This document shows, piece by piece, positions 33,722 to 41,994 of a DNA stretch of 64,000 bases. The translations under genes and the position numbers were made by a program. Under the pieces are notes generated by a model, which was not told where the DNA came from, searched no databases, and saw nothing but the letters and a program-made list of their open reading frames with translations. The stretch's first letter is position 1, and each line of letters opens with the position of its first letter. Source of the stretch: an uncultured Brevundimonas sp. (lineage in GTDB: Bacteria > Pseudomonadota > Alphaproteobacteria > Caulobacterales > Caulobacteraceae); NCBI GenBank assembly GCA_963522565.1, contig CAUQZC010000011.1, forward strand, positions 19,764-83,763, written 5' to 3'.

Positions 33722-34438
33722 ATGCTACGTGCAAAACTGCTTGCCGCAACTGCTGTCGCCACCTTGATTGCTGCTCCGGCCTTCGCTCAGGAAGCCGCAC
33801 AACCCGCTCCGACAGAAGCCGCCGCCGCGACCCAGGCTGCTGAAGCCGCCGCAACCCCTGCCGCAGAAGGCACCGTCGTGGACGTGCTGAAGTCCAGCGG
33901 CCAGTTCACCACCCTGCTGTCCGCGCTGGATCAGGCGCAACTGACCGACACCCTGCAATCGCGCCCGGCCATTTCGATTTTCGCCCCGACTGACGCCGCC
34001 TTCGCCGCCATGCCGGAGGCCGAGCGCACCCGCCTGCTGGATCCGGCCAACGCCAATGAGCTGCGTCAGGTTCTGCTGTATCACGTGATCGTCGCCGATG
34101 TTTCGCCCGACCAGATCGAAGGCAAGAAGGGCGGCGTTCCGACCGCTTCGGAAGCCCAGATCCTGCTGGACGGCACGGGCTCGGCCATCAAGGCGGACAA
34201 CGCCACCGTGGTCAGCGCTGAACTTGACGCCTCCAACGGCGCCGTCTTCCCGATCGATACGGTGCTGAACCCGGCCAACTCGATGGCCGCCATGGGTGAT
34301 GAGGAAGCCGTTCCCGCTGCTGACGCCGCCCCGGCCGAAGCGGCTCCTGCCGCGACCGAGGCGACCGATCCGTCGGCCACGCCGCCCGTCGAATCCCCTG
34401 ACCCCGCCACGGAACAGACCGATCCCACGCCGCAATAA
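33722..34438 (+). CDS. Fasciclin (FAS1) domain exported protein
   Basis: Signal peptide; FAPTDAAF, LLYHV, ASNGAVFPIDTVL. Confidence 0.9.
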   Translation: MLRAKLLAATAVATLIAAPAFAQEAAQPAPTEAAAATQAAEAAATPAAEGTVVDVLKSSGQFTTLLSALDQAQLTDTLQSRPAISIFAPTDAAFAAMPEAERTRLLDPANANELRQVLLYHVIVADVSPDQIEGKKGGVPTASEAQILLDGTGSAIKADNATVVSAELDASNGAVFPIDTVLNPANSMAAMGDEEAVPAADAAPAEAAPAATEATDPSATPPVESPDPATEQTDPTPQ

Positions 34439-34481
34439 TCGCGGTTGAATGAAACACGCTCGCTTGGGTGTGTTGAAGCGG

Positions 34482-34515
34482 AAGGCGGCGGGCCCTATGG
34501 TCCGCCGTCTTTTTT
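34482..34515 (+). terminator. Rho-independent terminator
   Basis: GC hairpin with CTAT loop followed by a T-tract. Confidence 0.7.
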
Positions 34516-34536
34516 ACAGCCCCTTCCGAGCCCGAT

Positions 34537-35430
34537 TTGAGCACCTCGACTGAACCGCTCGCGTTTCAGGACCTGATCCTGACGCTCCACCGCTATTGGA
34601 GCGAGCAGGGCTGCGCCATCCTGCAACCCTATGACATCGAGGTCGGAGCCGGCACGCTCCACCCCGCCACCGTGCTGCGCGCGCTTGGGCCAAAGCCGTG
34701 GAAGGCCGCCTATGTCCAGCCTAGCCGCCGCCCCGGCGACGGCCGCTATGGCGAGAACCCCAACCGGCTGCAGCATTATTATCAGTATCAGGTGATCCTG
34801 AAGCCGAACCCGGACAACCTTCAGGAACTGTATCTGGGGTCGCTGGCCGCCATCGGCATCGATCCGAAGCTGCACGACATCCGCTTCGTCGAGGACGACT
34901 GGGAAAACCCCACCGTCGGCGCCTGGGGCCTGGGCTGGGAGGTCTGGTGCGACGGGATGGAGGTGACGCAGTTCACCTATTTCCAGGGCGTCGGCGGCAT
35001 CGAGGTGGACGTGGTCTCGGGCGAACTGACCTACGGGCTGGAGCGTCTGGCCATGTACGTCCAGGGCGTCGACAATGTGTACGACCTGAAGTTCACCAAG
35101 GAGGGCCTGACCTATGGCGAGGTCTTCCTGGAGAACGAGCGGCAACAGTCCGAGGCCAACTTCCACGGCTATGATGTCGACGGTCTGAAGCGCCGGTTCG
35201 AGGATATGGTCGCCGAGGTGTCGCGCCTGTTGGCCATGACCGGACCGCAGGGCCAGCCGCTGGTCCTGCCCGCCTATGACCAGGTGCTGAAGGCCAGCCA
35301 CCTGTTCAACCTGATGGATGCGCGCGGCGCCATCGCCGTGGCCGAACGCCAAAGCTATATCGGCCGCATCCGCGAACTCTGCAAAGCCTGCGCCCTCGCT
35401 TACGTTGAACAAGAGCGGAAAACCGCCTGA
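34537..35430 (+). CDS. glyQ: Glycyl-tRNA synthetase alpha subunit
   Basis: [40 protein letters not shown] start. Confidence 0.98.
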
Positions 35431-37682
35431 TGCCCCAACTCCTCCTCGAAATCTTCTCCGAAGAAATCCCCGCCCGGATGCAGCAGGGCGCCGCGCGCGA
35501 TCTGGAGCGTATGGCGACCGAGCGTCTGAAGGCGGCGGGCCTGACCTGGGACGCGCTGACCACCTATGCGGGGCCGCGCCGCCTGACGCTGGTGGTGGAC
35601 GGCCTGCCCGCCGCCACGCCCGACCGCGAGGACGAGATGAAGGGGCCGAAAGCCTCGGCGCCCGAACAGGCGCTGGAAGGATTCCTGCGAAAGACCGGCC
35701 TGACCCGCGATCAACTGGTCGAGCGTGACGGCGTCCTGTTCGCGGTCATCAGCCAGCAGGGCCAGGCCACGCCAGGTCTGATCCCCGGCATGGTCGATCA
35801 GATCATCCGCAGCTTCCCCTGGCCCAAGTCGATGCGCTGGGGTTCCGGCACGCTGCGCTGGGTGCGGCCGATCAAGCGCATCCTGTGCATCTTCGACGGG
35901 GCGGTGGTTCCGTTCGAGGTCGACGGCATTCCGTCCGACGCCCTGACCGAGGGGCATCGTTTCCTGGGATCGGGCGCGCCCTTCGCGGTCAGCGACTTCG
36001 TCGATTACCGCCACAAGCTGGAGCGCGAGCACGTCCTGATCGACGTGGCGGACCGCAAGCTGCGTATTCTGGAACAGGCCAGGGGCGCCTGCGCCGCCAA
36101 GGGGCTGTCGCTGGTCGACGACGACGGCCTGCTGGACGAGGTGGCGGGTCTGGCCGAATGGCCGACGCCGATCCTGGGCGACATGGACCCGCAGTTCCTG
36201 GCCCTGCCGCCGGAAGTCGTGCGTCTGTCGATGAAGGTGCACCAGAAGTATTTCGCCGTGCGCGATCCGGCGCGCGAGGGCCCAGATTCTTCAGGAAAAT
36301 TGGCGCCCAACTTCCTGGTCGTCGCCAATGTCGAGGCGACCGACGGCGGCAAGGCCCTGGCCGCCGGCAACAGCCGCGTGCTGAGCGCCCGCCTGAACGA
36401 CGCCCGCTTCTTCTGGGACGAGGATCAGAAGGTCGGCTTCGACGCCTGGAACGCCAAATTGTCCGGCGTCACATTCCACGCCAAACTGGGCACATTGGCC
36501 GAGCGTGTGGATCGCATCGCCGCCCTGGCCCGCGAGATCGCCCCTCTGGTCGGCGCCGACGCCGATCAGGCGGAAACCGCCGCCCGCCTGTCCAAGGCCG
36601 ATCTGGCCAGCGGCATGGTGGGCGAGTTCCCGGAACTGCAGGGCGTCATGGGCGGATACTACGCCCGTCTGGCGGGCCAGCCCGACGCCGTCGCCGACGC
36701 CATCCGCGATCACTACAAGCCGCAAGGCCCCGCCGACACGGTCCCGACCGCGCCGGTCACGGTCGCGGTGGCCTTGGCCGACAAGTTGGACACCCTGGTC
36801 GGCTTCTTCGCCATCGACGAAAAGCCCACGGGTTCGAAGGACCCGTTCGCGCTGCGCCGCGCGGCGCTGGGCGTGATCCGGTTGGTGTTGGAGAATGGAG
36901 TTCGCATACGCCTGAACGCGACGGTCCAGGGTGCCTACCGTGGCATCTGGGAAACTGCGATGAGTAGGGGCTACGTCGCGCAAGTATGGCGTCGCTATAC
37001 CGAGCAATATTCAGGTGTGAACACGGTTTGGCTCTTCAAGGAAGAAAAGGCGCGTGGAGATCACAGTTTCACAACGCTTAGTGCTCAACCGCTCTTGGTT
37101 CAGGAGGTGGCTTCTGGGAATTATGGGCGGGCACGACTGGAGTTGGAAGATGAGGTCGAAGATGATTTTTCGGCTTTCATTTCCGACCGCCTGACCGTCC
37201 TCCTGCGGGACCAAGGCCAACGTCACGACCTCGTCGCCGCCGTCTTCGCTCTGGGCGACGACGATCTGGTCCGCATTGTGCGTCGGGTGGAGGCGCTGGC
37301 CGCTTTCCTCGCCACCGACGACGGGGTCAATCTGTTGGCGGGGTACAAGCGCGCCTCCAACATCCTGCGCGCCGAAGAGAAGAAGGGGCCTGTGCCGACG
37401 GGCATGGTCCAGACGGGCCTGCCGAACCAGCCCGAGCCGGAGACGGCCCTGGCCTTCGCCGTCGGCGCGGCCCGGACCGCCGTGGACGCCGCGCTGGAGA
37501 CCGAGGACTTCGCCGCCGCCATGACGGCGCTGGCGCAGTTGCGCGCGCCGGTGGACGCCTTCTTCACGCACGTTCTGGTCAACTCTGACGTCGCCGAAGA
37601 GCGCGACAACCGCCTGAAGCTGCTGGGTCAGGTCCGTGACGTGATGGGCAAGGTCGCCGATTTCGGCCAGATCGCGGGGTAG
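35430..37682 (+). CDS. glyS: Glycyl-tRNA synthetase beta subunit with a low-GC in-frame insertion
   Basis: LLEIFSEEIPA, KSMRW, MVGEFPELQG, TGSKDPFALRR, NRLKLL; 750 aa. Confidence 0.97.
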   Translation: MPQLLLEIFSEEIPARMQQGAARDLERMATERLKAAGLTWDALTTYAGPRRLTLVVDGLPAATPDREDEMKGPKASAPEQALEGFLRKTGLTRDQLVERDGVLFAVISQQGQATPGLIPGMVDQIIRSFPWPKSMRWGSGTLRWVRPIKRILCIFDGAVVPFEVDGIPSDALTEGHRFLGSGAPFAVSDFVDYRHKLEREHVLIDVADRKLRILEQARGACAAKGLSLVDDDGLLDEVAGLAEWPTPILGDMDPQFLALPPEVVRLSMKVHQKYFAVRDPAREGPDSSGKLAPNFLVVANVEATDGGKALAAGNSRVLSARLNDARFFWDEDQKVGFDAWNAKLSGVTFHAKLGTLAERVDRIAALAREIAPLVGADADQAETAARLSKADLASGMVGEFPELQGVMGGYYARLAGQPDAVADAIRDHYKPQGPADTVPTAPVTVAVALADKLDTLVGFFAIDEKPTGSKDPFALRRAALGVIRLVLENGVRIRLNATVQGAYRGIWETAMSRGYVAQVWRRYTEQYSGVNTVWLFKEEKARGDHSFTTLSAQPLLVQEVASGNYGRARLELEDEVEDDFSAFISDRLTVLLRDQGQRHDLVAAVFALGDDDLVRIVRRVEALAAFLATDDGVNLLAGYKRASNILRAEEKKGPVPTGMVQTGLPNQPEPETALAFAVGAARTAVDAALETEDFAAAMTALAQLRAPVDAFFTHVLVNSDVAEERDNRLKLLGQVRDVMGKVADFGQIAG

Positions 37683-37847
37683 GTCTATTCCAACACCGTC
37701 ATTCCGGGGCGCCCGTAGGGCGAACCCGGAACCCAGGAGGCGGGCGTCCAGCATCGAGTGCGTCAAACAGCGCGAATGTAGTCCTGGGTTCCGGGTTCTT
37801 CGCTGCGCTCAGCCCCGGAATGACGAAAGAGTTCGGGGCGTTGAATG
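37680..37847. mobile_element. Family A element at glyS stop (right end truncated)
   Basis: Begins at the glyS TAG; CGTCATTCCGGGGC...GCCCCGGAATGACG core; ends at TGAATG. Confidence 0.8.
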
Positions 37848-37961
37848 CACGTTCTGGTCAACTCCGACGTCGCCGAAGAGCGTGACAACCGCCTGAAGCT
37901 GCTGGGTCAGGTCCGCGAAGTGATGGGCAAGGTCGCCGACTTCGGCCAGATCGCGGGGTAG
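37847..37961 (+). pseudogene. Duplicated 3' end of glyS (37 codons plus TAG)
   Basis: Copy of 37568-37682 at a 279-bp period with 5 third-position differences. Confidence 0.9.
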
Positions 37962-38130
37962 GTCTATTCCAACACCGTCATTCCGGGGCGCCCGTAGGGC
38001 GAACCCGGAACCCAGGAGGCGGGCGTCCAGCGTCGAGTGCGTCAAACAGCGCGAATGTAGTCCTGGGTTGGCTGCTACGCGCCGCCCTTCGGGTCCGGGT
38101 TCTTCGCTCTGCTCAGCCCCGGAATGACGA
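37959..38130. mobile_element. Family A element, second post-glyS copy with a 25-nt insert
   Basis: Near-identical to 37680-37826 plus an insert at 38070-38094. Confidence 0.8.
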
Positions 38131-38193
38131 GCTGAGACGTTAACATGGGGCGTTTTGCTTCCCCTTCCTTACCGCCAGGCCTAAAGCCCGGCC

Positions 38194-39150
38194 ATGTCTT
38201 CCAGCCTGTTCACCACCCGCAGTTCAGTTTTCGCGCTGGCGACCCTGTGCTGCGCCCTGTGGGGCAGCGCCTTCCCGGCGATAAAGGCGGGGTTCGCCCT
38301 GCTGGCCGTGGCGCCGTCCGACATCGCCAGCCAGATGTTGTTCGCCGGATGGCGGTTCGCGCTGGCGGGGCTGATCCTGCTGGCGCTGGCGGCGGCGATG
38401 AAGAAGACAGTGTTGCGCCTGTCGATGGCCCAGTTCCGGCAGGTGGGCCTGTTGGGCCTGACCCAGACCACGATCCAGTATGTCTTCTTCTATACGGGCG
38501 TGGCCCATGCGACGGGCGCCAAGGCGTCGATCACCAATGCGACCACGACCTTCTTCAGCGTGCTGCTGGCCCATTTCATCTATGCCGACGACCGGCTGAG
38601 CGGGCGCAAGGCGCTGGGCTGCCTGACCGGTTTCGCCGGGGTCATGCTGGTCAATCTGGATCGGGCGGGGCCGAACGGTCTGGGTCTGGATTTCACCCTG
38701 CTGGGCGAAGGTTTCATCATCATCGCCGCCTTCGTGCTGGCCGCCGCCTCCATCTATGGCAAGCGGGTGTCGCGCACCCTGGACCCGATGGTGATGACCG
38801 GCTGGCAACTGACCATCGGCGGGGTTCTGCTGACGGCGATCGGTCTGGCGGGGGGCGGGCATCTGGCGGCGTTCGGCTGGGAGGCGATGCTGCTGTTGGC
38901 CTATATGGCGCTGCTGTCCTCGGCTGCATTTGCGATCTGGAGCCTGCTGTTGAAGCATAATCCGGTGGGGATGATCGCGGCCTTCAACTTCCAGATCCCG
39001 GTGTTCGGGGTGGCGCTGTCGGGCCTGTTCCTGGGCGAGAGCGTCCTGAAATGGAGCTATCTGGGCGCGCTGATTCTGGTGTGCGCGGGCATCTGGCTGG
39101 TGACCCGGACGCCGCGCGATGGGCCGTTAGCGCTCTCAAAGGCCGGATGA
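38194..39150 (+). CDS. DMT/EamA family transporter
   Basis: LWGSAFPAIK, about 10 TM segments. Confidence 0.9.
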   Translation: MSSSLFTTRSSVFALATLCCALWGSAFPAIKAGFALLAVAPSDIASQMLFAGWRFALAGLILLALAAAMKKTVLRLSMAQFRQVGLLGLTQTTIQYVFFYTGVAHATGAKASITNATTTFFSVLLAHFIYADDRLSGRKALGCLTGFAGVMLVNLDRAGPNGLGLDFTLLGEGFIIIAAFVLAAASIYGKRVSRTLDPMVMTGWQLTIGGVLLTAIGLAGGGHLAAFGWEAMLLLAYMALLSSAAFAIWSLLLKHNPVGMIAAFNFQIPVFGVALSGLFLGESVLKWSYLGALILVCAGIWLVTRTPRDGPLALSKAG

Positions 39151-39315
39151 ATTTCGCCCTGCGACGGAATGGCGGAGTTTGGTCACGTTTTGTTACGCGC
39201 GGCCTCGCCTTCGCGCTCGCAGCATTGTAGTCAGGGCGACCGCGCGCGGGACCATCCCGCCGCATCTTTACACGCGGGCTAACGGCCCGTCTGACCACGG
39301 CTCAGGGACTGCAAG

Positions 39316-41994
<2,679 letters not shown>

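Follow-up and report, generated by a model that had tools for sequence, protein, structure and literature searches.

The window, i.e., the whole 64,000-nt stretch of Brevundimonas DNA analyzed here, carries on its plus strand two adjacent genes for glycyl-tRNA synthetase (GlyRS): glyQ, encoding the alpha subunit (34537..35430, an ORF matching PF02091 with an E value of 1.5e-140), and glyS, encoding the beta subunit (35430..37682, an ORF matching PF02092 and PF05746), with the glyQ stop overlapping the glyS start. The glyS product belongs to the heterotetrameric type of GlyRS beta, as it combines PF02092 with a DALR anticodon domain, lies next to glyQ, and retains the tRNA-contacting residues. 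As an established essential housekeeping gene, glyS is presumably also essential here, since the window's copy is the only full one found in the genome. Inside it, on the same strand, lies a variable segment of 94 aa (residues 489-582; 36894..37175), delimited by a GC3 and codon scan, alignments, and a fragment model, which we call the cassette. It is bordered on the left by a conserved flank with the loop and helix of the ATL/HD region that read the acceptor stem, including D471, R476, and R477 (36834..36893, plus strand), and on the right by a conserved flank containing R587 (37176..37260, plus strand). Based on the alignment to E. coli, the synonymous divergence (raised near both edges), and contig joints, we take these two flanks to be the left and right crossover zones.

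The cassette differs from its host gene in composition, with a GC3 of 0.55 compared to 0.88 for the remaining glyS, and a CAI of 0.33 in the segment versus 0.71 in the rest of the gene. The original prediction, made from the letters of the window, had counted a GC content of about 54% over 36901-37180 and about 51% over 36961-37180, and both counts hold (150/280 or 53.6%, and 51.4%, in a genome of 65.6% GC). At third positions, GC is 54/98 over 36891-37184 against 575/652 elsewhere in glyS (Fisher p 1.7e-13, for an interval picked after the fact), and all eight codons that had been named as rare are present in the segment, with 10 uses in 98 codons compared to 5 in 652 elsewhere in glyS. The reading frame is intact across the segment, as had been stated, and yields a protein of 750 aa. 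In contrast, the claimed abrupt return to high-GC coding on both sides was not borne out, as rare codons persist for a few codons in the conserved flank on either side. Among 1499 genes scanned across the genome for internal stretches of poor codons, glyS came 3rd. Independent contigs span the cassette junctions, one from run X17 covering 36131-37683 and one from run X2 covering 36851-37219, in a check of 4 of the 24 listed runs, so these junctions are not an assembly artefact.

When aligned to E. coli GlyS, the window's D471, R476, and R477 correspond to D476, R481, and R482, and its R587 to R531. These four E. coli residues contact the tRNA acceptor stem, R531 through the tRNA backbone, according to the available part of the structural work (PMC9908026). 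The acceptor-stem-binding part is named the ATL domain, common to AlaRS, in the accessible text of bioRxiv 2023.05.29.542759, and the cassette site would belong to this domain. Measured from anchor to anchor, the 94-aa cassette takes the place of a 33-residue hairpin (E. coli residues 494-526, from the alignment) between the tRNA-contacting residues, in agreement with the roughly 95 versus 30 residues first proposed. The full-length GlyS model was too weak for use (mean pLDDT 65); the fragment model reached a mean pLDDT of 84, with a good core, a poor tip at residues 531-554, and both flanking helices extended. Within the cassette, helices are predicted at 495-512 and 516-527, followed by the low-confidence tip, which is probably exposed, and by a helix that runs from 563 into the conserved core. 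A Foldseek search with this fragment model matched only GlyRS in the PDB. The cassette would extend the helical hairpin located after the tRNA-reading helix and give it a variable tip; on both sides, the tRNA-contacting residues would remain fixed.

A search of the genus found a glyS match in 141 of 151 genomes, and 130 loci including the window's were analyzed, with 11 of the 141 matching genomes left out. In the extraction of segments, L148, L155, L156, L163, L120, and P0099 were dropped as unparsed and L123 as mis-parsed. Aligning GlyS from many strains had been put forward as a check, and the alignment indeed contains conserved flanks around unrelated, length-variable, low-GC3 segments at a fixed site. 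The cassettes range from 28 to 152 aa, with at least 60 aa in 85/130 loci and short forms of 28-45 aa being common, and their GC3 is below that of the rest of glyS in 128/130 loci (median 0.64 vs 0.90). BLAST clustering, for which shuffled controls gave one match, places the 130 segments in 84 families, 60 of them singletons, and the Chao1 estimate of the number of families is about 195. The window's segment is one of many mutually unalignable versions and not a one-off foreign insert. Its own clade consists of 16 proteins, partly labelled Brevundimonas nasdae by their sources, with backbones 94-99.7% alike and 11 cassette families, a diversity inflated by the collapse of the protein database at 90% identity. 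Several families of this clade recur in other clades at 67-91% identity, and the window's own family was found in two other proteins only. Among 60 loci outside the genus, 21 have a segment of at least 50 aa, with a GC3 drop of more than 0.1 in 16 of the 21, compared to 14/36 for short segments. Several families cross genus boundaries: L072 and L085 group with L158, a locus from Hyphomicrobiales, and the Caulobacter locus L106 groups with L044 and L061. At L008, L009, and P0099, the replacement extends into the conserved anchor helices.

Cassette families do not follow the rest of the gene. Among pairs with at least 95% backbone identity, 5/170 share a family, compared to 110/8086 pairs below 95%, and the nearest neighbour carries the same family in 2/62 cases. 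On a backbone tree, built with FastTree from glyS minus the insert and flanks (69 rows, 24 shared families, one partial gene excluded) and thus not a species tree, 53 changes of family were observed versus 54.8 +/- 1.3 for shuffled labels, and 15% of shuffles do as well; the tree incongruence that the original prediction had looked for is therefore present. For instance, P0002 carries the window's family (75.5% insert identity) on a backbone 88.3% like the window's, while that backbone is 98.6% identical to the one of L006, which bears a different insert. Different inserts are found in backbones that are as much as 98.6% identical, which is not the whole-gene divergence that characterizes homeoalleles.

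Several observations point to the conserved flanks as the places where alleles are exchanged. L208 and L230 are identical over a tract of 302 bp that runs from the left anchor to the right anchor and includes 255/255 insert bases, with 48 mismatches in 526 flanking bases by hand count (probability about 3e-13); the tract may nevertheless be a chimera because the genome of L208 is in 320 contigs and has 4% contamination. An earlier probability of 1.6e-25 for this pair was dropped, as its background had been inflated by a misaligned repeat site. In one wastewater metagenome, three contig joints leave the window's sequence at 36887-36899 and rejoin it at 37183. Over 199 close pairs with different inserts, pS is 0.29-0.37 in the flanks versus 0.15-0.24 elsewhere, in pairs that are non-independent and in a region where codon bias slackens as well. 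The near-identical long inserts all sit in backbones at least 93% identical (28/28 pairs), which places exchange mostly among close kin. That alleles are exchanged by recombination in the flanks is, in our judgement, very probable, and the proposal of an exchangeable hypervariable module at a fixed glyS site, discordant with the backbone tree, stands.

With regard to selection, dN/dS was computed on the first 87 loci, and among the 22 estimable same-family pairs, which are non-independent, it is at most 0.27 in 18 and 0.45-0.65 in the other four, which are short; five further pairs were not estimable. Within families, dN/dS is about as low as in the backbone, and selection there is mostly purifying, a pattern that could serve folding alone. 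The suggestion of a surface under diversifying selection consequently fails for substitutions within families, and the diversity sits between alleles. Alleles are common to several clades, and their divergence tracks clade divergence, as insert identity rises with backbone identity (Spearman 0.42 over 75 pairs, again non-independent), and members of a family from different clades and genera diverge about as much as their backbones do. Taken together with the 28 near-identical pairs, this correlation argues for old alleles shared across clades and recent exchange among close kin. Shared families and singletons have the same GC3 (medians 0.64 and 0.63), so low GC3 is not a mark of recent arrival. 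A comparison of insert GC3 with the host clade gave 7/10 (p 0.34).

We are inclined, with little more than even confidence, to regard the cassette as one member of an old pool of folded surface modules, recombined through the flanks among close kin and kept under balancing selection by a protein antagonist. Alleles would pass between close relatives through a homologous double crossover, one in each conserved flank, would be older than the clades that carry them, and would be retained in the pool by an advantage of rare alleles. The most likely driver would be a phage- or competitor-encoded protein, such as a binder, a kinase, or a tRNA-modifying toxin, that docks on or beside the cassette surface; an antagonist of this kind is somewhat likelier than not to lie behind the cassette's diversity. 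The low GC3 may be a permanent condition of DNA that rarely finds a homologous copy to pair with, rather than the signature of a donor. Attackers of synthetases do exist in related bacteria: Caulobacter HipA kinases phosphorylate GltX and TrpS, according to the consulted portion of PMC7029023, and the tiarins of Rhizobium are synthetase-directed, with GlyRS not mentioned in the part of that report available (10.64898/2025.12.02.691738). Against an antagonist, the attackers described in these portions target other synthetases or the active site, and neither the HipA kinases nor the tiarins are tied to the GlyS cassette site. The downstream neighbours among the loci listed include no visible toxin, partner gene, or allele-tracking gene.

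A bolder form of the same idea, which we hold only tentatively and consider rather unlikely, is that synthetases such as GlyS and SerS carry MHC-like polymorphic surface modules, i.e., allele-specific shields, decoys, or sensors against phage or toxin proteins that attack translation, drawn from trans-species pools of hundreds of alleles. If true, this would amount to bacterial defence of an unrecognised kind, housed within a gene. The allele structure resembles that of an arms race, more typical of hosts and parasites than of housekeeping genes, and it lies inside a textbook housekeeping enzyme, at a hairpin beside the acceptor-stem contacts. What attacks synthetases in the wild thereby becomes a question that can be addressed by swapping alleles of about 300 bp, and the cassette is usable as a strain-level marker and as a natural library of tolerated fusions.

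An explanation without any special function is improbable. The hairpin may be a permissive loop under drift that tolerates extra residues, in which foreign DNA is trapped by homology-facilitated illegitimate recombination, is selected only to fold, and spreads by ordinary recombination. Such trapping is described in the accessible part of PMC2884548, the loop lies outside the tRNA contacts listed in the available part of PMC9908026, codon bias in the cassette is weak, short forms are common, and GlyS tolerates other in-frame inserts near residues 285 and 415. Drift should, however, lose alleles, yet one tight clade holds 11 families, and the same families occur in other clades and genera. Nor does drift fit well with within-family dN/dS about as low as the backbone's, with the predominance of long alleles (at least 60 aa) despite the existence of short ones, or with the failure to find source DNA for the inserts searched. 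Less probable still is an added physiological function, in which alleles would tune tRNA binding, stability, localisation, or interaction with a host protein and would be exchanged as a locally adaptive module. The position between tRNA-contacting elements, the partly folded prediction, and purifying selection within families all suit this reading, and synthetase variability is ascribed to tRNA recognition in the portion of PMC387263 consulted. Nevertheless, dozens of unalignable solutions on near-identical backbones fit one host partner poorly, several cassette alleles co-occur in a single wastewater sample, and no shared motif or domain was found among the inserts.

The idea of foreign DNA recently brought in from a low-GC donor is not supported, and we consider a recent import from phage or other mobile DNA, whether single or serial, very unlikely. 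Low GC3, rare codons, and the singletons (60/130 alleles) are what such an import would leave. Searching the window's insert against 1.84 billion protein representatives, however, retrieved no homolog outside GlyS apart from two repetitive matches judged to be chance, and the 57 long inserts yielded no credible Pfam or PHROG domain (best PHROG E value 0.0013). In the ESM Atlas, the window's insert matched GlyS clusters plus one unnamed cluster at 0.87, scans of metagenome and viral contigs gave no match to the window's insert, and Foldseek matched nothing viral. Furthermore, the families are old, and those that are widely shared stay at low GC3, which is a caution against reading low GC as proof of recent transfer, as the cassette itself is for synthetase phylogenies.

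The hallmark of an intein is a C-terminal His-Asn followed by Cys, Ser, or Thr. This motif (HN[CST]) occurs in 0/130 segments, and no HINT or homing endonuclease domain was found in the 57 inserts of at least 50 aa (of 87 loci), in line with the earlier remark that intein hallmarks are absent. The cassette is single-copy in the genome, where a palindromic multi-copy repeat would recur, and of the 33 inverted-repeat pairs, the 25 longest include none with its arms inside the cassette. Silent copies were sought with 310 inserts (tblastn) and with the two flanks (blastn), which matched only glyS in the genome, the sole exceptions being four matches of 22-37 nt. Selfish or programmed origins, whether as an intein, as a palindromic repeat in frame, through conversion by silent gene copies, or as the target of a diversity-generating retroelement, are thus scarcely credible despite the fixed site in an essential gene and the abundance of palindromic repeats that enter GlyS elsewhere in relatives, and the intein, the palindromic repeat, and the silent-cassette or retroelement system are rejected for this genome by these motif, domain, and copy-number tests.

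The palindromic repeat in question is about 135 nt long with 14-nt terminal arms, occurs at 37693-37830 and 37972-38130, and has 77 loci of at least 100 nt in the genome and no Rfam match; an Rfam search of 34400-39400 found nothing. A 223-nt tandem duplication (37568-37790 and 37847-38069, plus strand, 97% identity), comprising the last ~115 nt of glyS and most of the palindromic repeat, was scored only at the window's locus among the loci listed and probably has nothing to do with the cassette. Pro/Gly-rich inserts that keep the frame and add 10-47 aa are present near GlyS residue 285 in L023, L034, L067, L080, L081, and L090, and near residue 415 in L085-L089, and by eye these resemble palindromic repeats that have been translated. 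At the residue-285 site, the window shows 6 extra aa that look like a remnant (36270-36296). Small ORFs follow glyS, in either orientation, at L029, L035, L036, L040, L083, L087, L090, L225, L226, L228, L230, L231, and L242, and we take them to resemble DUF559 nucleases.

Another gene of the window's genome has a similar variable loop. The serS gene (L171:275-1723; G000:C6:149574-151022), rank 5 in the scan, has a 64-aa insert with a GC3 of 0.48 vs 0.87. Across relatives (28 loci parsed of the 30 best-scoring, with L189 and L191 left out and no clustering), this loop has 5 residues in 5/28 loci and 18-82 residues with low GC3 in 23/28. No cassette was found in the twelve other synthetase genes located by motif in this genome (scan ranks 190-1464), and six further synthetase motifs matched nothing there. 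In particular, alaS carries no segment of this kind at the corresponding site. The top-ranked gene encodes a biotin-dependent carboxylase subunit (L172:211-2235; G000:C4:307310-309334, minus strand) with a domain of about 160 aa at a GC3 of 0.59 vs 0.87, variable among the 17 loci listed of 25 and low in GC3 in some, normal in others; the pattern is consequently not confined to synthetases. A uvrB-like gene (G000:C1:423035-425395, minus strand) has a conserved 45-codon stretch at a GC3 of 0.49 and is adjoined by a methyltransferase-like ORF with atypical codons. In ileS (G000:C8:9026-12010, minus strand), a short peptide near residue 480 is duplicated internally.

Alleles of the MHC and of self-incompatibility systems, and the specificity domains of restriction-modification systems, are numerous and old, extend across species, raise linked synonymous diversity, and have conserved flanks. 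The glyS cassette is like them in its many old cross-species alleles and conserved flanks and differs in belonging to a cytoplasmic translation enzyme with a putative selecting ligand. In mosaic genes, which include the essential gene penA, the blocks that are exchanged align as homologs and are equal in length. As in these genes, the glyS tracts disagree with the backbone and have their ends in conserved DNA. In contrast, the glyS blocks are non-homologous modules of 28-152 aa confined to one hairpin and very many in number, with 84 families among 130 segments. Pneumococcal mosaic genes and hot spots (Pbp2x, PheS, ValS) are likewise core genes, synthetases among them, reshuffled by homologous recombination among kin, per the available portion of PMC5400400. 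No description of the glyS cassette was found in the literature searched, mainly non-subscription papers without their supplements, and the supplements of GlyRS structure papers may show long alphaproteobacterial loops. Polymorphic microdiversity loci likewise are short variable segments at fixed core-genome positions replaced by recombination, and PMC2884548 leaves them without detailed study and makes no mention of synthetases. The homeoalleles of synthetases (Andam and Gogarten 2011, PMC3191353) are similarly ancient, divergent forms passed preferentially among close kin, although, in the text accessible, these are whole genes with few forms, and the glyS cassette is a sub-domain segment with more than 80. 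In layout, the cassette also resembles segmentally variable genes (Zheng, Roberts and Kasif 2004, PMC387263), in which, as in glyS, a variable block with biased codons is bracketed by conserved regions and which include synthetases among their examples. The synthetase example in the consulted part of that paper is the YbaK-like insertion of ProRS, with no general GC shift and glyS not mentioned, whereas glyS has near-identical backbones with unalignable alleles, a strong GC3 drop, and recombination tracts. The glyS cassette fits the definition of segmentally variable genes and operates as recombined mosaic genes do, not like a homeoallele.
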